Positions 1 to 45,693 of a stretch of DNA of 64,000 nucleotides are shown here, piece after piece; within the stretch, counting starts at the first letter, position 1; each line of letters begins with the position of its first letter. The position numbers and the translations under genes are program-made. Location: the NCBI GenBank assembly GCA_024277205.1, contig JAJRVP010000015.1, positions 1,645-65,644 of the forward strand, read 5' to 3'. Source of the stretch: an archaeon (GTDB taxonomy: Archaea; Nanobdellota; Nanobdellia; CSSed11-243R1). The notes below the pieces were generated by a model, which saw only the letters and a program-made list of their open reading frames with translations, was not told the DNA's origin and ran no database searches.

Positions 1-460
1 TATACTTTGCTTCTTTTGGATTTGCCCTACTAAGCAACCCAGCAATTATAGAAATCTTTTGATCAACTGCACCAACGCCAGAAACTTTTGCTGTTTTTAA
101 AAAACCATCATAAACTTCTGCAAGAGTTAATTCTTTTGGTTTTATCAATTTGTTTTTGAATTTTCCAGAAAGAGCTTCAGCAACTAATCCTAAATCTCCT
201 TTTTTCTTATAAAGTTCTTTTACTTTTTTAATATCTGTTCCTGTTGCTCTTGCAATTGCTTTTTCAAGCATTCTCTCTGCCATCCCAATCTCAATTCCCT
301 CATAAGCGGGTTTAATCCTCTCCTGGCAGATGTAAATTAACTTGTCAATATCAGAATGTGGGGTTTTCTTAAAAAGCTGGGAAAGAATTTCAAACATCTC
401 TAATCTTTTTGTAGTTTCCTCAAGCTTTTCAAAGTGCTCTGCAACAATTGCAAATTTCAT
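1..460 (-). CDS. ATP-dependent DNA ligase, N-terminal fragment (gene continues beyond window start)
   Basis: Reverse-strand translation from ATG at 458-460 gives MKFAIVAEHFEKLEETTKRLEMFEILSQLFKK..., the typical N-terminus of archaeal/eukaryotic ATP-dependent ligases. The frame runs off the window edge. It lies below the ORF-track cutoff region, so it is not in the provided track. Confidence 0.5.
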   Translation of the reverse strand, partial: MKFAIVAEHFEKLEETTKRLEMFEILSQLFKKTPHSDIDKLIYICQERIKPAYEGIEIGMAERMLEKAIARATGTDIKKVKELYKKKGDLGLVAEALSGKFKNKLIKPKELTLAEVYDGFLKTAKVSGVGAVDQKISIIAGLLSRANPKEAKY

Positions 461-499
461 AATAAAATAAAAAGAAAAATAGATATATTAAACTGTTGT

Positions 500-1018
500 T
501 TAACTATCAAAATTATATCTTTGACTTAATTCAATATCTTGTTTATTAAGTTTGTCCACTTTATTTTGATTCTTAGATAAGATAAGTTCTTTTAAGGTTG
601 GATTCATACCAGAATATATTTGTGCAACAAATTTTCCAACATTTTTTGGTTTTAATATATAGGCATTTGAACTACCGGGTGGATTAGTTAAACAGCTTTG
701 ATTTAACCCATCTGGGGGACAGCTTATAACTGGATATACAGAATGATAAGATAATGTTCCAGATAAAGCATCTGTTCCACCTGCAACAGCAATGTACACC
801 AAAGAACCATCTAATTGATTTAATTCCTCAATTATGCCCATTAACTTCTCTGGTTGTTTATGTGCTGAGCAAATCATAACTCTATGTGGAATTTCATAAT
901 CATCTAATGATTTAAGAATTTTTATTATGTGCGGTTCATCACTTCCAGAACCAGCCATAATAACAGCACAACCAGTCTTAGATTTTATAATTTCCTTAAA
1001 ATAGGAATCGATTGCCAT
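500..1018 (-). CDS. purE: N5-carboxyaminoimidazole ribonucleotide mutase (AIR carboxylase catalytic subunit)
   Basis: 172 aa. AVIMAGSGSD...YIAVAGG motifs are typical of the PurE fold. Sits in a pur cluster. Confidence 0.85.
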   Translation of the reverse strand: MAIDSYFKEIIKSKTGCAVIMAGSGSDEPHIIKILKSLDDYEIPHRVMICSAHKQPEKLMGIIEELNQLDGSLVYIAVAGGTDALSGTLSYHSVYPVISCPPDGLNQSCLTNPPGSSNAYILKPKNVGKFVAQIYSGMNPTLKELILSKNQNKVDKLNKQDIELSQRYNFDS

Positions 1019-1040
1019 CTCAACACCTCTTTATTCTTAA

Positions 1041-2438
1041 TTACTCCAAAATTAATTTATCAACTATATACTCAGCTTCACCAGTATAAGATGATGGACC
1101 GAATCTAATAATATTTCTCAATTCATCTTTAATCCTCTCTGGAATAACAAGATTATCAACAAATTTTAATAATTCCTCTATGGTTACTTTTCTTCCTCTT
1201 GTTAACTCTTTTAATCCTTCATATGCGCCAATATACCCTTCTCGTCTCAGGATTGTTTGTATTGGTTCTGCAAGTACTTCTGGATGTTCTTCAATGCATT
1301 TTTGCAAATAATCATAATTGGGTTCGATTCTGCTTAATCCTTTTAATGTGTTTTTCCATGCAATAAGCGTATGTCCAAATGCCTCTCCCATTGCTCTTAA
1401 CATAGTTGAGCCAGATAAATCTCTTTGCATTCTAGTAGTTGGCAATTCACTTAATGCTTCAAATATTGCATTTGCAATTCTTATATTCCCTTCGCTATTC
1501 TCAAAATTAATCGGGTTAACTTTGTGTGGCATTGTTGAAGAACCCACTTCTTCTTTTTTCTTTTTTTGTACGAGATAATCATAACTAATGTAAAGCCACA
1601 TATCTAAATCAAGTTTTTTAATTATTGTATTTGTCTCTTTTATTAAATTAAATAACTCAGAATATTCTGTATACCCATCTACTTGTGTTGTTACTAATTT
1701 TGGTTCCAATCCAATTGCTTCTAAAAATTTAACAGAAAATTCAACACCATCTATTATAGGATACGCTGCTACAAGAGCACTGTAATTACCAGTAGCCCCA
1801 TTTAACTTTGCTGGAATTTGGAATTTTTGTAATTTTTCTAATTTTCTGGAAAGTTCATTTGCAAAAACTGCAAATTCTTTACCAAGTGTTGTTGGAGATG
1901 CTGGTTGTCCATGTGTTCTTGCAAGCATTGGTAAATCAGCATATCTATGTGCATAGTCTCCTAATTTTTCAACAATTCTTTTTAACTGAAGTGCAAAGAT
2001 TGTTTGCATTGCTGTATTTAACATACTAGCATATGCAATGTTTGTACAATCCTCTGAAGTTAAAGCAAAATGTACACTTTCTACAACATCTTCTAAAGAA
2101 GCATTCTCTATATTTTCTTTAATAAAATATTCTACTGCTTTTACATCATGATTAATTTTAGAATCTATTTCTTTTATTTTTTTCATAGAATTTAAATCAA
2201 AGTTAAGATAAAGTTGCCTGAGATATTCTTTTTCTTCTTTAGTAAACTCTCTAACATGGGTTATGTCTGGGTGCTCTGATAAAAATATTAAATAATTTAC
2301 TTCCATCCAAACTCTACGCTGTTGTAAACCATATTCTGAAAAGTAATCTCTTAATTCTTTTGTATCTTTAGCATATCTCCCATCAACAGAACTTACTGCA
2401 GTAAAAGAATTCAACAGAAGTTCGTCCATCGTATCCAC
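1041..2438 (-). CDS. purB: adenylosuccinate lyase
   Basis: 465 aa. Fumarate-lyase superfamily signature region (SSxMPHKxN-like GSSTMPHKVNP). Length and context match PurB. Confidence 0.85.
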   Translation of the reverse strand: MDTMDELLLNSFTAVSSVDGRYAKDTKELRDYFSEYGLQQRRVWMEVNYLIFLSEHPDITHVREFTKEEKEYLRQLYLNFDLNSMKKIKEIDSKINHDVKAVEYFIKENIENASLEDVVESVHFALTSEDCTNIAYASMLNTAMQTIFALQLKRIVEKLGDYAHRYADLPMLARTHGQPASPTTLGKEFAVFANELSRKLEKLQKFQIPAKLNGATGNYSALVAAYPIIDGVEFSVKFLEAIGLEPKLVTTQVDGYTEYSELFNLIKETNTIIKKLDLDMWLYISYDYLVQKKKKEEVGSSTMPHKVNPINFENSEGNIRIANAIFEALSELPTTRMQRDLSGSTMLRAMGEAFGHTLIAWKNTLKGLSRIEPNYDYLQKCIEEHPEVLAEPIQTILRREGYIGAYEGLKELTRGRKVTIEELLKFVDNLVIPERIKDELRNIIRFGPSSYTGEAEYIVDKLILE

Positions 2439-3176
2439 CTAAAACCTTCTTACTAGTTCCAACATTTGTTCATATCCTACTTTTGCTTTTTTAACATCTC
2501 CTGTATCTCTATAAACTTGTTTGTCAATCATGTGCTCTTCTATCCCGCCTGGCCATACTCTCCAAGAATCATTTGTTAATTCATCTGCCAGAACTATTTG
2601 TCCATCAGATGTTATTCCGAATTCTACTTTGTAATCTACAAGAGTTGCACCAACATTTTCAAAGGCATCTCTTAGTATTTTGAAGGCCTTTATAGTAATC
2701 CCGTGAATTATCTTATACTGCTCATTTGTTAAAAGCCCTCCAGCAACTGCAAGACTCTTATTTATTGGTGGGTCGTGCTCTGCATCATTTTTGAAATGAG
2801 TTTCAAAAGTTACGTATGGTAATTGCTCTCCTTTTTTGAAAAATGGAAATCTCCTAACTAAAGAACCATATGCAATTTGCCTTGATATGCACTCCAAAGG
2901 AATCATGTCAACTTTTCTAACAAGCTGAGTATTTTCATCTATTTGTTCTACAAAATGAGTTGGTACTCCATGCCTATTTAGGCATCTCATAACTAAACTT
3001 GAAGTCTCACAATTTATTGCACCTTTTCCTTTCATCACATCATGTTTTGCACCATCACCAGCTGTTATATCATCCTTAAAGTATAACAGAGAAAGTTGTG
3101 GATTTTCTGGATGTGCATAAACAGTTTTTGTTTTTCCTTCAGCAATAATCTCCAATTGGCTTAAATCCCATTTCAT
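2439..3176 (-). CDS. purC: phosphoribosylaminoimidazole-succinocarboxamide (SAICAR) synthetase
   Basis: 245 aa with the EGKTK motif and SAICAR synthase-like organisation. Start is adjacent to the purB stop (2438/2439), consistent with an operon. Confidence 0.85.
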   Translation of the reverse strand: MKWDLSQLEIIAEGKTKTVYAHPENPQLSLLYFKDDITAGDGAKHDVMKGKGAINCETSSLVMRCLNRHGVPTHFVEQIDENTQLVRKVDMIPLECISRQIAYGSLVRRFPFFKKGEQLPYVTFETHFKNDAEHDPPINKSLAVAGGLLTNEQYKIIHGITIKAFKILRDAFENVGATLVDYKVEFGITSDGQIVLADELTNDSWRVWPGGIEEHMIDKQVYRDTGDVKKAKVGYEQMLELVRRF

Positions 3177-23450: not shown

Positions 23451-23526
23451 TGGGGTTGGCAGGATTTGAACCTGCGACCTTCGGCGCCCGAGGCCGACGC
23501 TCTAATCCAAACTAAGCTACAACCCC
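23451..23526 (-). tRNA. tRNA-Pro (anticodon CGG)
   Basis: 76-nt cloverleaf on the minus strand: acceptor GGGGUUG/CAACCCC, U8, D-stem GCUU/GAGC, anticodon stem UCGGC/GCCGA with loop CUCGGGC (G37), T-arm GCAGG-UUCAAAU-CCUGC, A73. No encoded CCA. Confidence 0.8.
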
Positions 23527-30433: not shown

Positions 30434-31018
30434 ATGGACAAACCAAATTATGAATATTTTACCAACTCGATTAGATATGTACTCGGGCTGAACAAACAAA
30501 CAATGGGTATAACCTCTCTATTTGAGATTGATAAAAAGTATTTAATTGAAGATTTCATGAAATGGATAAACAAGATAAAAAAGAGAGTCGTAGAGATAAC
30601 TAATTTAGATATAAATCTTAGAGAAAAACTACTATTTGAATTAGAATTATTAGAAAATAAAATCAAACTAATCAAAAAATCAGACATGGAATGGGAGATA
30701 ATTCCATCTTTGATGAATGTTATATCTAATCTTGTAGGATTTGAACATGGAGATATAAATCGAAACTGTCTATTTTACCAAAATTTCAGTCAAGAAATGA
30801 AGAGTCTTAAAAATAAAGGAAAATATCCTACGTATGAGGATATGGCTAAGTTTAGTAAATACAGAATTGAAGAGATCAGCCATATAGTTAACGAACTGCA
30901 CAAGAAGGGATACACCATCTATCAAATACATACAATCGTAAGACTACCACAACTTCAAATTAGAAAGATGCTACAAAAAAGCAGGCTTAAACGCCCGCCT
31001 GCTTCGCTGCTTCCCTGA
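30434..31018 (+). CDS. hypothetical protein (element cargo)
   Basis: 194 aa. The C-terminus runs into the GC-rich island. Confidence 0.3.
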   Translation: MDKPNYEYFTNSIRYVLGLNKQTMGITSLFEIDKKYLIEDFMKWINKIKKRVVEITNLDINLREKLLFELELLENKIKLIKKSDMEWEIIPSLMNVISNLVGFEHGDINRNCLFYQNFSQEMKSLKNKGKYPTYEDMAKFSKYRIEEISHIVNELHKKGYTIYQIHTIVRLPQLQIRKMLQKSRLKRPPASLLP

Positions 31019-31223
31019 GCAGCTCTGAAGCAATCCCTTCTGGTGTTTTCTGCTTTATGCCGAACGCGCTTCTGTAAAGGAAGAATATTGCTTTGCTGAT
31101 GTCCCTGCGAACGAAGGCGTCAACTCTCTCGTCAGAAGCTATCTTGGCGAGGTATCTTGCCTTCGCAAGAATCCTCCTTGCCCTTTTCGTATTTTCATCT
31201 AAAGCAGATTTTTTGTTTTCCAT
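30987..31223 (-). CDS. small helical hypothetical protein encoded with GC-rich codons (compositionally foreign)
   Basis: 78 aa, protein-like amphipathic helices. Codons are GCG/CGC/GGC-rich, unlike the rest of the window. Confidence 0.3.
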   Translation of the reverse strand: MENKKSALDENTKRARRILAKARYLAKIASDERVDAFVRRDISKAIFFLYRSAFGIKQKTPEGIASELLREAAKQAGV

Positions 31224-31224
31224 T

Positions 31225-31345
31225 TAAACCACCTCCGGTGGCGTCTCGGGAGCGTGGTCTCTTAATGCTTTTAGCGAAAGCGCGGTTGCCAACCAAAAGC
31301 TTTAAGTTGGACCAAGCGACAGCCACAAAGGAGGTGGTTGGAAAA
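31225..31345. other. GC-rich structured region upstream of the GC-rich small gene (possible leader or small RNA)
   Basis: Ten-base-pair closing helix AACCACCUCC...GGAGGUGGUU. Internal hairpins include CCAAC-(AAAGCUUU)-GUUGG and GCG-AAAG-CGC. Confidence 0.2.
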
Positions 31346-31398
31346 CAAATTAAACATTAGCAATAAATTATATAAACTCTGAATATGTTTAGTCAAAC

Positions 31399-31794
31399 AT
31401 GAAATACAAACACAGTAATCGTGATTTATTGTCTCTAATATTAATGTTTACATTTGTGATAACCTCAATATTGTTCTTTGTATCGACTGAAGGTAGTTAT
31501 ATGATCAAATATGACATGAATAATCCTTGGAGTCCAACTACAGAAGGTATTATGATGATATTCATCATAGGCACTCCAATAATTCTTGGTATTTTTGATT
31601 TATATTTTATCATATATTACATTGCTAATAACAAAGATGTTCTTTATACGCTAAATGCAGTAGTCAATATTATCTTTGGTATACCTACAGGGATTATTTT
31701 AATATCTAACCTAGGCCCAATAGTTAAACTATTATTTATGTTTATTGGGATATTTACACCAATTATAACTTTAGTTTTTCTCTTTGAAAAATGA
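31399..31794 (+). CDS. multi-pass small membrane protein, hypothetical
   Basis: 131 aa with four hydrophobic helices. Confidence 0.3.
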   Translation: MKYKHSNRDLLSLILMFTFVITSILFFVSTEGSYMIKYDMNNPWSPTTEGIMMIFIIGTPIILGIFDLYFIIYYIANNKDVLYTLNAVVNIIFGIPTGIILISNLGPIVKLLFMFIGIFTPIITLVFLFEK

Positions 31795-32143
31795 CTACTT
31801 AATAAAGATATCCAAATCCCCCAATTTTAGCGTTGAATGAAGAAATGAATAATTTTCTGAGTAAAAGAGCTGAAATTTATGAAAAAGGATTAAAAAAACA
31901 AGATTAAGATTTATACAACTTCTCAACAGCTTCAATAATCAAATCTCCCTTAACCTTTTTCTTAAAAAGTTCTTCAATCTCCTTTATTTTCTTTTCATTT
32001 AGATTTTGTTTGTACATCCTCATCGCCCTCCATAACTTCTCTTATCTCCTGCCTACCATTCAGGCATTTTTTCAAGAATTTCTTTCTTCATTTTAACCAA
32101 TAAGAATTAGATTAAGAAGTATAAAATGTGTTTAATAGTATTA

Positions 32144-32831: not shown

Positions 32832-33617
32832 TTATCCACCACTCTGGTAGCCTTTTTTGGATTTCCATGTCCATAAAATCACCAGCAATAGAACTAGTGA
32901 GAAGGGTTTATTAAAGTTGGAAGAAATTTCAAGTTTTAGAAACAAAAATAAAGGAGAATTTGGATCATCCCTGTTTGGATGAATTTCAAGCCAATTAGCA
33001 AGATAAGGAGTTGATGTAATTAATCTTATTCTTCTCATGCCTGTTTTTCCACTCACAATTATTTTTGCTCCATATTTGTCAAAATTTAAATGTTTAATCT
33101 GCATTGTTGCTAATTCACCAATTCTGCAACCAGATTCATAAAGTGTTGAAATGAGTGCTTTGTCCCTAACATGCCCTGCTGCTTCTATCAATCTTTTTAC
33201 TTCTTCAATTGTCAGGATTTCCTCTGGCAATCTGCTTTTTCCATTTTTCATAGTTGTTTTTAACCATTTGATTTTTTCTGGATACTCTCCATTGTTTAGC
33301 CATTTGTAGAATTTCTTTATAGAAATCTTGTGCAACTGCTTTGTCCATTCTGCATAATCCATTCTTTCTATTTTTTGAACCAAATCCAACAAATCTTCTT
33401 TATTTGCTTTGTCCAAATCTTTGTTCAGCCAAGATATTATGTTTTTCAAAAGATAAAGGTATCGCTCCACTCTCACAATGCTGAGCCCTTGTGCAAAGCA
33501 ATCCCTTTGAAATTTTAAAAGCAGTTCCTTGTTTCTCTTTGAGATTTTTCTAGACTTTTTAATTTTCTCAAGAACTTGTCTAAGCCTTTTCTCAGATTCA
33601 TGAATGTCCTGCTTCAT
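32832..33617 (-). pseudogene. tyrosine recombinase/integrase (XerC/XerD-like), C-terminally truncated
   Basis: N-terminal SAM-like core-binding domain and box I with catalytic Arg (ESGCRIGEL) are present. After NSPLF the frame degenerates, and the HxxR and Tyr motifs are absent. Confidence 0.55.
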
Positions 33618-33685: not shown

Positions 33686-33697
33686 AGCCTCGGGTGG
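33686..33697. repeat. att-like direct repeat (right copy, inside tRNA-Thr 3' end)
   Basis: Exact 12-mer AGCCTCGGGTGG. Confidence 0.5.
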
Positions 33698-33806
33698 GAT
33701 TTGCACCCACGACCTTCGCCTCTTTGCAACCTTTTCTTTGGTTGAGCTTTCTTTTCCAAAGAAAGGTCATACCAAGGCGACGCGCTACTAGCTACGCCAC
33801 CGAGGC
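33686..33806 (-). tRNA. tRNA-Thr (anticodon GGU) with about 47-nt intron in the anticodon loop
   Basis: Acceptor GCCUCGG/CCGAGGC, U8, D-stem GCGU/GCGC, anticodon stem UCGCC/GGCGA, T-arm GUGGG-UGCAAAU-CCCAC, U73 (archaeal Thr identity). Exon junctions give loop UUGGUA|A. The exact splice sites cannot be fixed by eye. Confidence 0.55.
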
Positions 33807-41067: not shown

Positions 41068-41104
41068 AATACTCTAAGAAAATATACGTTAATAAAATTA
41101 TGGA

Positions 41105-41373
41105 TGCGGGGGAGGAGATTTTCACCAACCCTTTCTTTTGGTCGAGCTTTTCTTTTTAAGAAAAGGTCGTTTTGAACTCCCGCAGGGATTGGTCACCAAA
41201 GCGCCAAAGGGCACATTAGCTCTAACCCACCAGGTATCCACGACCCCTTCTTTTGGTCGAGCTTTTCTTCCAAAGAAAAGGTCGCCTAAGCCTGGCCCGT
41301 TTGACCGTACCGTGCTCTTTCTTTCCCGAGGGTTTCTTTCTCACGAGAAAGAAGAGCTCTCCGGCACCCCCGC
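41105..41373 (-). tRNA. tRNA-Leu (anticodon UAG), class II, with at least three introns (D-loop, anticodon loop, T-loop region)
   Basis: Acceptor GCGGGGG/CCCCCGC with A73. D-arm CCG-GAGCGGUCAAA-CGG appears after removing a 50-nt D-loop intron. Anticodon stem CCAGG/CCUGG with loop CUUAGG|A. T-stem GGGAG/CUCCU is split by an intron after UUCAAAA. A 48-nt stretch in the variable region is unresolved. Confidence 0.45.
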
Positions 41374-41416
41374 ATAAAACAATAGAAAATAATCCACTAT
41401 AAAAAAGTTGTGAAAA

Positions 41417-44061: not shown

Positions 44062-45357
44062 TCAATGTCTCAACATTGGTGGGGGCTTCCTATGTGGCGG
44101 ATGGCGTATGTGGGTTACACGACTGCGGGCCGCCCGTATATTGCTTGCAGCAAATGAACGTGGTGAAGGATCTCTTGATGGTTTATTCAATTGATAACTT
44201 AACATACTGCTTGGGGGACCTGGTGGCCTTACTGACGAGTTTCTCCTGTTGTAACTATCTGTATTCCCTTGAGAACTATCCGACGAAATGTTACCAAATT
44301 TACCAGACGAATAATTACTGGTATCCGGAGACGTCGAAATAACATTTTGTGGCAATCTTTGAGCATAAGCAATTTCATGAAATCTTTCTTTCTCCTTAAT
44401 TAGTGAAGGCAACCTTTGTTTATAGAAAGTATCTCCTGAATCTCCAAGAATCTTGTAGTAATCTATGGCAATAGATATCAAACCCTCAGCTGACTTGAAA
44501 TCTTTTTCATCAACAGCCATGTATGTCATAGAAAGGAGTATTTCAGGAATGACTAATAGAGTATCATAATCAACATCCTTAGCATCCATCTTCCTGCGCC
44601 AAACAGTAAGAGCGTGATCCATATCATTAATAGCATCTTTTCTACTGCCAATTTCTTCGTAAATACTTCCCCTTATGTACAATGAAGTAATATCATCTTT
44701 CCTGAATCCAAGCGCAGAGTTAATTGAGGATAAAGCAGAATTTAAATCGCATCTTTCCATGTTAACATATGTAAGCAAATACATCAAATTAAGATACTCC
44801 TTACTATTCCTACTTTGATGTATTGTCTTTCCAGCCATATAATCTCTACCATAATCCAAATATCTCTTAGCACTTAATAATTCACCTTTGTTATATCTAA
44901 GTCCCCCTAGGTAACTAACAGTTTTCATAAGCACATTCATAACATCATCATCATTAGAATTGGGTATAGCCAACAATAAATCTTCCAATCCTTTTATTGA
45001 ACTAGAAGAACCAAAATTCTCAAAACTAATCGTATAAAAATCATAAAAAAATTCCATAGCAGCAGGATAATCCGCAAGGCGATTTAGATTTATTGTATCA
45101 TCTGAAAGAAGAATATTCATTGAGTCTGCAAGTAATTGTATTCCCCTATTTTTACTTTTGAGTTTTTGCACTTCATTAGTTTCTTGCATACCCGCAAGGT
45201 ATTCATACTTTCCGACAAGGTATGTTATTTCCCCACTATTATCCATCCTTGCTGCAGTTTCAAGATAGCTTATAGCATCACTTGCCCTCTCTGCCCTCCT
45301 AACTGCATCAGCATAAGGTTTCGCTTTTGCATTCGCTTTCCATCTCGCCATAATCAA
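44062..45357 (-). CDS. TPR-like repeat protein with GC-rich, Pro/Ser/Arg-rich C-terminal extension
   Basis: 431 aa. The helical repeat region is followed by a low-complexity tail, encoded by 44062..44340 at markedly higher GC. Confidence 0.4.
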   Translation of the reverse strand: MIMARWKANAKAKPYADAVRRAERASDAISYLETAARMDNSGEITYLVGKYEYLAGMQETNEVQKLKSKNRGIQLLADSMNILLSDDTINLNRLADYPAAMEFFYDFYTISFENFGSSSSIKGLEDLLLAIPNSNDDDVMNVLMKTVSYLGGLRYNKGELLSAKRYLDYGRDYMAGKTIHQSRNSKEYLNLMYLLTYVNMERCDLNSALSSINSALGFRKDDITSLYIRGSIYEEIGSRKDAINDMDHALTVWRRKMDAKDVDYDTLLVIPEILLSMTYMAVDEKDFKSAEGLISIAIDYYKILGDSGDTFYKQRLPSLIKEKERFHEIAYAQRLPQNVISTSPDTSNYSSGKFGNISSDSSQGNTDSYNRRNSSVRPPGPPSSMLSYQLNKPSRDPSPRSFAASNIRAARSRVTHIRHPPHRKPPPMLRH

Positions 45358-45423
45358 ATCAAATAGGTTATGTTTTAAAGACTTTTTCTTTATAATGTTA
45401 CAAATTATTATTTAAAGAAAAAG

Positions 45424-45601
45424 TGCTCCCACCGGGATTTGAACTCCCGCAACCTTTCCTTTCTTTTGGTGCAGCTTTTCTTTTTGAAAGAAAAGGTGTC
45501 CCGGGTCATCGGCTTTCTCCAGATTTCTTTGGTGCAACTTTCTTTTTAAAGAAAGGTGCTTCGAGAGGCCGACATCCTTGACCGGACTAGACTATGGGAG
45601 C
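45424..45601 (-). tRNA. tRNA-Glu (anticodon CUC) with two introns (anticodon loop and T-arm 53/54)
   Basis: Acceptor GCUCCCA/UGGGAGC with A73. Anticodon stem UCGGC/GCCGA with loop CUCUCGA. T-stem CCGGG/CCCGG is interrupted before UUCAAAU by a 55-nt intron. Overall pattern matches archaeal tRNA-Glu. Confidence 0.5.
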
Positions 45602-45693
45602 GTCCAGTTCTTCCGCCAGCGCTTCTTTTTAAGAAGGGCTGATGGGAGCACAATAAGAAAATAATATAAATATATTAAAAGCTTTACTAATGT

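Follow-up and report, generated by a model that had tools for sequence, protein, structure and literature searches.

Based on the analysis of a 64,000-nucleotide stretch of the archaeal contig JAJRVP010000015.1 (the window, below), from a member of the Nanobdellota, we describe here a GC-rich minus-strand cassette in which the gene of a small orphan protein (78 residues) is preceded by a long, rod-like RNA hairpin that takes in the gene's own Shine-Dalgarno (SD) sequence. We propose that this leader is a cis-acting translational lock on the mini-gene, and a new cis-regulatory RNA motif; to this reading, which rests on the comparison of 12 loci and on structure modelling, we give a probability of roughly 60%. 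As far as its sequence can be read, the island is one compact, self-contained minus-strand transcription unit, formed by a predicted promoter, a 132-nt leader hairpin, the 78-residue open reading frame (ORF) and a stop-codon hairpin followed by a U-run (Table 1).

The 140 nt at 31209-31348 fold at -65 kcal/mol (z = -8.3), which none of 200 dinucleotide shuffles matches. The resulting hairpin (132 nt and about 44 bp) has a nearly invariant mid-stem, GUCGCUUGGUCCAACUUAA / UAAGAGACCGCGCUCCC (given also as UAAGAGACCRCGCUCCC), and an asymmetric internal loop (UG(G)UC / UCCC...) that is conserved to the same degree. Its apex varies in length and is shorter by about 12 nt in locus L003 and longer by about 30 nt in locus L017. 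The DNA was fetched for each homologue of the protein, and an equivalent hairpin was found upstream of every one (12 loci with the window), each copy folding alone into the same rod, at -48 to -65 kcal/mol and with z between -4.4 and -8.3. The comparison thus covers 11-12 related sequences, mostly on contigs of 0.6-3 kb. In a plain MAFFT alignment, fitted to no structure, RNAalifold finds 42 pairs, 14 of them with compensatory double changes. A covariance model (CM) of the leader, R1, scores 107-157 bits in 11 loci; in the alignment fitted to it, 96.5% of the cells are paired, against 42-54% when the partners are slid by 1-3 columns, and 500 column shuffles all fall short of the observed values, whichever measure is used.

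Among the compensations, UGGUC/GACCR becomes UGGCC/GGCCG (in L009) or CCGGC/GCCGC (in L013), GUGGC/GCCAC becomes AAGGC/GCCUU, GCUUUU/AAAAGC becomes GCCUUU/AAAGGC and, in the basal helix P0, GUUUUCC/GGAAAAC becomes GGUUUCC/GGAAACC, with residue 3 of the protein changing from Asn to Thr. Additionally, about 29 cells are G.U pairs (one position is U.G in 9 of the 11 sequences), and since these would be A.C mismatches on the other strand, the structure is to be read on the coding strand, as RNA. Altogether, the comparison argues that the leader is a real, conserved RNA structure of the coding strand. It is also the slowest-evolving part of the cassette, slower even than the non-synonymous sites of the coding sequence (CDS): between the window and L003 the arms differ with a p-distance of 0.04, for proportions of non-synonymous (pN) and synonymous (pS) differences of 0.16 and 0.49 in the CDS, and between the window and L014 the corresponding values are 0.20, 0.25 and 0.73. 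The arms differ at 1-11% of sites within the window's subgroup, and at up to about 35% family-wide. A structured leader upstream of the ORF, closed by a 10-bp long-range helix, had been proposed in a preliminary description made from the letters of the window; the leader is confirmed in all 12 loci, and the helix (P1) is found inside the longer hairpin.

What that description did not see is the nature of the closing helix, which joins the gene's own SD to an upstream copy of its complement, with the AUG enclosed as well. The 5' strand of P1 carries an anti-SD that reproduces the CCUCC core conserved in the 3' tail of 16S rRNA, and this anti-SD pairs with the gene's own SD in 12 of the 12 loci, the helix being either invariant or compensated. 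In 11 of the 12, the start codon is clamped by a further helix of 6-7 bp that takes up its G together with codons 2-3, and its AU lies in a bulge between P0 and P1. The entire initiation region is enclosed, because P1 pairs the SD and P0 pairs the region of the start codon. In the divergent locus L011, a GAGGUGG sequence is sequestered by another 5' arm.

Since SD-occluding hairpins are a known design of RNA thermometers, the leader could be thought to make a small protein heat-responsive. The provenance of the loci gives a mixed indication: L001 and L002, judging from the isolate and sample names, presumably come from the Auka (Pescadero Basin) hydrothermal sediment, and the sample code of L003 may, we assume, indicate deep-sea vent material, both of which count for a thermometer, whereas the sample set of L017, with the same hairpin, may be non-thermal if its code name is a guide. 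We consider this explanation extremely improbable, given that the nearest-neighbour model keeps over 98% of the SD paired to 85 °C: the predicted probability of it being unpaired is below 0.02 to 85 °C (0.012 at 80 °C and 0.037 at 90 °C), and about 30% at 100 °C. Sequence conservation in the mid-stem would not be expected of a thermometer either, and ROSE and FourU elements, which share the occlusion of SD and AUG by a hairpin, do so with short, weak helices, unlike the approximately 44 bp found here, which give -50 to -65 kcal/mol and are predicted to stay closed to at least 85 °C.

The pairing could also act at the level of single-stranded DNA, as a palindrome (an attC-like site, a MITE/REP-like repeat or a replication origin). 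Some features would fit such a role: the palindrome, of about 125 bp, is imperfect and bulged, its apex varies, both strands fold well, the contexts differ, and in the window a tyrosine-recombinase fragment lies 1.5 kb away. Besides the G.U wobbles, however, several observations make it very improbable. There is one copy per locus, always fused to the ribosome-binding site (RBS) of the same ORF, and no second leader was found in the 64 kb, either at up to 3 mismatches or with the CM, nor in any of the fetched loci, whereas MITE and REP repeats occur in many dispersed copies. The hairpin is strongly conserved in sequence, as attC sites, which keep only their structure, are not; these sites also lie at the 3' end of promoterless cassettes, carry the R-box GTTRRRY and occur in arrays next to an IntI, while the present hairpin is 5', contains the SD, has no GTTRRRY box at its base and belongs to no array. 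Finally, the homology between the window and L001 starts outside the hairpin and not at an internal crossover.

In the Rfam 15 search of the whole window, only two tRNAs pass the gathering thresholds. Between 30800 and 31500, four matches at E<=10 are at chance level (13-15 bits, to miRNA, snoRNA and lncRNA models), with no rRNA model matching the leader, and at E<=1 nothing was matched in the 11 homologous loci. The preliminary description had recognised no SRP-RNA or RNase P motif, and the Rfam covariance models likewise gave no family for the island. No riboswitch class in Rfam matches the leader, whose sole associated gene is the orphan protein. A full-text literature search for the conserved 12-mer returned unrelated primers, and keyword searches gave nothing specific. 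With exact DNA patterns, the leader was found among genome contigs in that of L001 alone, and in metagenome contigs there were four chance matches in high-GC bacterial genes; nothing was found in viral contigs with four DNA patterns or with the protein profile. An upstream ORF within the leader (suggested by a TAAATG overlap in L001) was rejected, as its frame, start and stop are unconserved and the substitutions are pair-compensating rather than codon-like.

The 78-residue ORF, present with the sequence quoted for it in the preliminary description, is not called in the source NCBI record, and by itself it proves nothing, because the GC-rich RNA genes of the window throw spurious ORFs of about 50-80 residues (e.g. 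41138-41377 and 45423-45581). Two close homologues were found in a first search, and an exhaustive profile search among 1.84 billion representatives gave four further clusters at 50% identity, plus two strong-looking matches (P0004 and P0005) that were rejected as translated tandem repeats. The family, with five such clusters in all, is extremely rare. A second profile search brought the total to 11 homologous proteins of 76-93 residues with intact frames, the homology reaching down to 31% identity. Between the window and L003 (72% amino acid identity), the 55 nucleotide differences are distributed 16/9/30 over the codon positions, and the Nei-Gojobori ratio of non-synonymous to synonymous divergence (dN/dS) is 0.11-0.30 for the pairs with unsaturated dS and 0.47 for the most distant pair. 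AlphaFold2 (AF2), run on 12 sequences, gives a three-helix bundle of amphipathic helices with a pLDDT of 91. Based on the existence of homologues, on their protein-like divergence and on the confident predicted fold, we regard the ORF as a real protein gene under purifying selection, and the small helical gene of the preliminary description is thereby upheld. The product is predicted to be a soluble three-helix bundle (GRAVY -0.32 to -0.68, with no transmembrane helix; pI 10.2 for the window copy). No match was found for it in Pfam, NCBIfam, PADLOC, PHROG or the PDB, in family and fold searches, nor with tblastn in plasmid and phage collections. For the homologues in L009 (583-966, P0007) and L014 (2247-2588, P0013), gene callers added 50 and 22 N-terminal residues, respectively; since the MEN/MET start and the SD are conserved, these extensions are annotation artefacts in which the leader hairpin is translated in frame.

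These data also bear on the suggestion that the island is in reality all non-coding RNA with the ORF as a by-product, or, conversely, an ordinary GC-biased gene without a functional RNA. A GC peak in an AT-rich archaeal genome does often mark a structured RNA (reportedly the basis of the screen by Klein, Misulovin and Eddy in 2002), and it was such a peak that drew the preliminary description to the island. The tRNA islands of the window are also of this kind, and its GC-rich RNA genes do create spurious ORFs. Here, however, the GC peak also covers a genuine CDS, whose composition comes from horizontal origin. We give the two possibilities next to no credence: the codon-position-biased divergence, the dN/dS of 0.1-0.3 and the homology down to 31% identity contradict a spurious ORF, the CDS is not consistently structured and no Rfam family matches, and the strong covariation of the leader speaks against an ordinary gene. 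In particular, the CDS as a structured RNA was considered and found no support, as it is not consistently more structured than its synonymous shuffles (z from +1.3 to -3.6, and from +1.3 to -1.6 in 8 of 9 loci).

Table 1. Features of the cassette and its surroundings (window coordinates)
Feature	Position	Strand	Basis and remarks
Whole cassette	30984..31348	-	blastn and alignment; 97.3% nucleotide identity to L001 1484-1849, flanks unrelated
Rod-like leader hairpin, helices P0-P6	31215..31346	-	minimum free energy and z, RNAalifold covariation, CM R1
Helix P1, 5' strand AACCACCUCC, with anti-SD (CACCUCC)	31330..31339	-	7/10 pairs invariant, 98% paired
Helix P1, 3' strand GGAGGUGGUU	31227..31236	-	contains SD GGAGGUG (31230-31236), 6 nt before AUG
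Helix P0, 3' strand GGAAAAC	31215..31221	-	G of AUG and codons 2-3; partner GUUUUCC at 31340-31346
CDS, 78-residue orphan protein	30987..31223	-	11 homologues, codon-position bias, dN/dS, AF2
3'-end hairpin GCAGGC/GCCUGC and U6 run	30975..31004	-	repeat search; UAA stop (30987-30989) in the loop
TATA-like box TTTATATA	31369..31376	-	sequence; pairing in the hairpin starts 22 nt downstream
39-residue ORF	31904..32023	-	tblastx; homologous to the small ORF that immediately precedes the leader in L001, L002, L003 and L015

If the gene and the RNA are both real, the hairpin could still serve mainly as a stable small RNA in its own right, cut out of the transcript and acting in trans or in a ribonucleoprotein with the protein, the occlusion of the RBS being secondary. 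The slow evolution of the arms relative to the non-synonymous sites of the protein would agree with this, as would the conserved internal loops and variable apex, which are typical of protein-bound rod-like RNAs, and the constant co-inheritance of RNA and protein. We think it improbable, however, since the SD is part of the structure in every locus, and the last base of the start codon, with codons 2-3, in 11 of the 12. This inclusion, and covariation that even alters residue 3, tie the hairpin to translation initiation. Moreover, no copy of the RNA without the ORF was found in the window or in any fetched locus, and no processing signal was recognised by eye, the features looked for being bulge-helix-bulge (BHB) motifs, K-turns, C/D and H/ACA boxes and the cores of hairpin and hammerhead ribozymes. 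A BHB motif has two 3-nt bulges on opposite strands with a 4-bp helix between them, a geometry that the leader does not have when inspected by eye (UUU/C, then 8-9 bp, then a bulge of 5-7 nt on the 3' side).

Under the translational lock that we favour, the hairpin would zip as soon as its 3' arm is transcribed, so that the mRNA would be born in an OFF state. This state, stable above 85 °C in silico, would be long-lived, with hairpins at both ends protecting the mRNA, and translation would need an active event: the 5' arm might be cleaved or removed, a helicase might act, or an RNA or protein might intervene in trans. The position of the TATA-like box places the predicted start of transcription at the base of the hairpin. 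At the other end, a stop-codon hairpin equivalent to that of the window is found in 12 of the 12 loci, followed by a T-run in 10 of them, and would be a terminator-like or 3'-protective element. Given that the sequence of the mid-stem and loop is conserved well beyond the needs of SD occlusion, a recognising factor is likely, and because the cassette works after transfer between hosts, this factor would most likely be either the protein of the cassette, binding as feedback, or some component that all hosts have, such as a nuclease or the ribosome. Feedback binding of the protein to its own leader would be our first guess. The leader is like the autoregulatory leaders of ribosomal-protein and other RNA-binding-protein genes (such as those of E. 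coli S15 and L20 and of the Methanococcus L1 operon), in which a structured leader overlaps the RBS of its own gene, sequence-specific internal loops point to a protein-binding site, and RNA and gene are co-inherited; the difference is that the cassette protein has no Pfam, NCBIfam or ribosomal-protein match and no conserved positive charge. In the leaders of ribosomal-protein genes, the RNA imitates the protein's rRNA site.

Several observations weigh against the lock, or against parts of it. Simple occlusion of the SD leaves the sequence conservation of the mid-stem unexplained. L011, the locus that diverges most, has neither helix P0 nor the conserved 5' arm. The TATA-like box is evident in its canonical form in the window copy only and is not conserved in the other loci, which have a T-rich tract of the CYTTTTC type in its place. 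The covariation counts partly reflect shared ancestry, and the CM alignment was fitted to the model. As for self-binding, a basic protein, as would suit RNA binding, is found in the window's subgroup only (net charge +6 to +8), the other subgroups being neutral, and the leader variants do not track the protein subgroups cleanly; the idea is weakened by both facts.

A related explanation keeps the lock and changes what it guards, namely that the cassette is the locked mRNA of a toxin or defence effector, similar to those of type I toxin-antitoxin systems (hok/sok), silenced by its leader and possibly by an antisense RNA, activated by processing or infection, and serving the stabilisation of mobile elements or abortive infection. 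An anti-SD that sequesters the SD in a stable 5' structure, together with a protective 3' hairpin, is the architecture of hok, tisB, zorO and aapA1, with which the cassette shares the upstream pairing of CCUCC type with the gene's own SD, a presumably inert primary transcript, a compact monocistronic unit and a mobile or variable location. The lock seems too stable for spontaneous opening, the antisense strand of the hairpin folds stably too, and the cassette is rare, patchy and horizontally exchanged, with neighbours that include an integrase, a PD-(D/E)XK nuclease, a UG21 defence reverse transcriptase (RT) and a PIN pair. We regard this as the main alternative, though an unlikely one. Type I toxins are short hydrophobic peptides (usually below 60 residues, with a transmembrane helix) of no sequence relationship to the cassette, whereas the archaeal protein is soluble, of 76-93 residues and without a transmembrane helix; no conserved antisense promoter or antitoxin RNA was recognisable by eye in the aligned loci, PADLOC gave no match, and the copy in L012 adjoins the housekeeping genes Kae1 and UDG. 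A more speculative version, again an unlikely one in our judgement, would be a new selfish or defence module in DPANN archaea, in which a long-lived and translationally dead mRNA uses its conserved hairpin as a sensor: once the hairpin is opened or cut, by a nuclease, by an RNA or protein from an invader or after a labile partner is lost, a harmful or regulatory three-helix protein would be released.

The surroundings of the cassette differ from locus to locus. In the window it lies near a truncated XerA-like integrase beside a tRNA; this tyrosine-recombinase ORF (32832-33617, minus strand) matches positions 3-184 of the 263-position XerA profile, its catalytic C-terminus is missing, and it starts 69 nt past the 3' end of an intron-containing tRNA (33686-33806, minus strand). 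No repeat of the tRNA 3' end, as a candidate att site, was found elsewhere in the window, nor were convincing direct repeats. A weak match (74.7%) to the last 80 nt of the integrase ORF exists at L001 1233-1321. The idea that island and integrase might be co-conserved did not hold, as the mostly short flanks that could be obtained for the other loci have no complete integrase annotated. In L001 the cassette is accompanied by TrmB-like, Zn-ribbon and PD-(D/E)XK genes with a GC-rich block of about 1.4 kb (600-2000, at 42-50% GC in a contig of 27-38% GC), which holds a TrmB/Sta1-like winged helix-turn-helix gene and a CxxC...CxxC zinc-ribbon gene, followed by a DUF4365/PD-(D/E)XK nuclease. The block has the appearance of a small foreign element; in the window, only its leader and ORF are left in GC-rich form. 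In L013 the context is a UG21 defence-type RT and a PIN pair, the cassette being placed between the divergent RT (3-1445, minus strand; PADLOC E = 1e-130) and a 74-residue ORF followed by a PIN gene (2093-2781, plus strand). RTs of the UG type often use a neighbouring structured RNA; the association, found in 1 of 12 loci, is here probably only a shared location in a defence island. With L012, where Kae1 and UDG are adjacent, the contexts are diverse, and the cassette tends to lie in mobile or defence-type surroundings.

The composition of the cassette sets it apart from the host. The 365-base block has about 48-50% GC in a genome of about 32% GC; per 100-nt window the values are 0.44-0.50 over 30950-31349 and 0.22-0.35 on either side, and by part they are 0.51 for the leader, 0.47 for the CDS and 0.32 for the remaining window. 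At third codon positions (GC3) the CDS reaches 0.52, against 0.20-0.31 in seven long host ORFs. The preliminary description was thus right about a GC-rich island but placed it too high, at 50-60% GC. Nor is it the sole such island of the window, since others of tRNA type are present (23451-23526, 33686-33806, about 41104-41376 and about 45423-45650); it is the sole GC-rich protein-coding island that we found.

A horizontal origin, also put forward in that description, is well supported. The copy in L001, a contig (JAGGYW010000006) of a Nanoarchaeota metagenome-assembled genome which is the closest relative of the window genome among the fetched loci, is 97.3% identical over 366 nt, with unrelated flanks and with a homology block that begins outside the hairpin. 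By comparison, a probable tRNA gene common to the two genomes is 80.7% identical, and the adjacent 39-residue ORF, 88% identical to L001 1348-1458 in amino acids, is 67% identical in nucleotides, with a GC3 of 0.30 in the window against 0.73. Constraint cannot account for an identity of 97%, because the synonymous sites of the CDS vary freely between more distant copies (pS 0.49 against L003); the cassette was exchanged recently. We read these comparisons as evidence that DPANN archaea of the Nanoarchaeota type pass the cassette on horizontally.

Across the family, the leader has 0.49-0.61 GC everywhere, and the GC3 of the CDS is 0.36-0.65; the flanks, in 10 of 12 loci, are at 0.24-0.38. The CDS of L009 is already part-way to the composition of its host and the leader there is not, and in two contigs of 49-53% GC, one of them Nanoarchaeota-like by its Kae1, the cassette fits the local composition. 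GC richness serves a function in the leader, because stable helices are needed, and is historical in the CDS, which is not consistently more structured than its synonymous shuffles: a recent horizontal arrival from relatives of about 50% GC, with incomplete amelioration.

Some further observations concern the borders of the cassette. The 39-residue ORF (peptide ...NEKKIKEIEELFK..VKGDLIIEAVEKL...), which accompanies the cassette in L001, L002, L003 and L015, is fully AT-adapted in the window, where about 550 nt, with a 131-residue membrane ORF on the opposite strand (31399-31794), lie between the two. A second conserved peptide, E(I/L)xE(R/K)(L/M)PxWW, can be read further upstream in L001, L003 and L015; in the window a stop codon cuts it short (...MPEW*). 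On the other side, a plus-strand ORF of 194 residues (30434-31018) with weak helix-turn-helix similarity converges on the cassette and ends 35 nt inside it, its last 11 codons being antisense to the terminator hairpin; its end probably marks where the cassette was inserted or swapped in.

As for the other GC-rich islands of the window, the tRNA at 33686-33806 (minus strand) has a 50-nt intron, which marks the genome as archaeal, and the islands at 45423-45650 and 41104-41376 (both minus strand) resemble tRNA genes with about three introns each, with recognisable acceptor and T-arm halves. Both are missed by Rfam at gathering thresholds and by ARAGORN. When the presumed introns are removed by hand, the former receives a tRNA-like call from ARAGORN (Glu/Arg-type, with an irregular anticodon loop); the latter, treated in the same way, receives none, its tRNA identity being assigned by eye only. 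L001 11255-11387 matches window 41117-41247 at 80.7%. The introns of the two islands have a motif, ACCTTTCTTT...AAAGAAAGCTC.ACCAAAGAAA.GG, in common with the 50-nt intron just mentioned; this points to a family of tRNA introns that are related to one another and may be mobile. Additionally, 44062-44240 (GC 0.42-0.47), at the 3' end of the ORF 44062-45357 (minus strand), whose C-terminal 60 residues are Pro/Arg/Ser-rich and look like read-through, may be another unrecognised RNA gene, with no Rfam match at E<=0.1.

One more known arrangement resembles the cassette. In type III toxin-antitoxin systems (ToxIN), also found on mobile DNA, a structured RNA lies directly upstream of a small protein gene, namely an array of RNA repeats of about 36 nt upstream of an endoribonuclease toxin. 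The cassette differs in having no tandem-repeat RNA array (none was detected in the leader with TRF), no terminator between RNA and gene, and no ToxN-like fold or size. Taking these comparisons together with those given above, we consider the cassette to represent a new family of RBS-occluding cis-regulatory leader joined to a new orphan protein family on a small mobile cassette of DPANN archaea, outside all the families with which it was compared.

Few cis-regulatory RNAs are known from archaea and, to our knowledge, none from the DPANN lineages. The comparative support of the present leader is unusually clean (12 loci, 14 covarying pairs and an invariant SD occlusion), and it could enter the RNA-family databases directly. 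The cassette also illustrates that a GC peak in an AT-rich genome can have two causes at once, here the structural GC of the leader and a recently imported CDS. If the lock were to control a toxin or a defence effector, RNA-locked addiction modules would extend to the Archaea, and if the hairpin were indeed the sensor of such a module, this would be the first archaeal counterpart of the hok-type control of post-segregational killing or abortive infection, built from an unrelated RNA and an unrelated protein.

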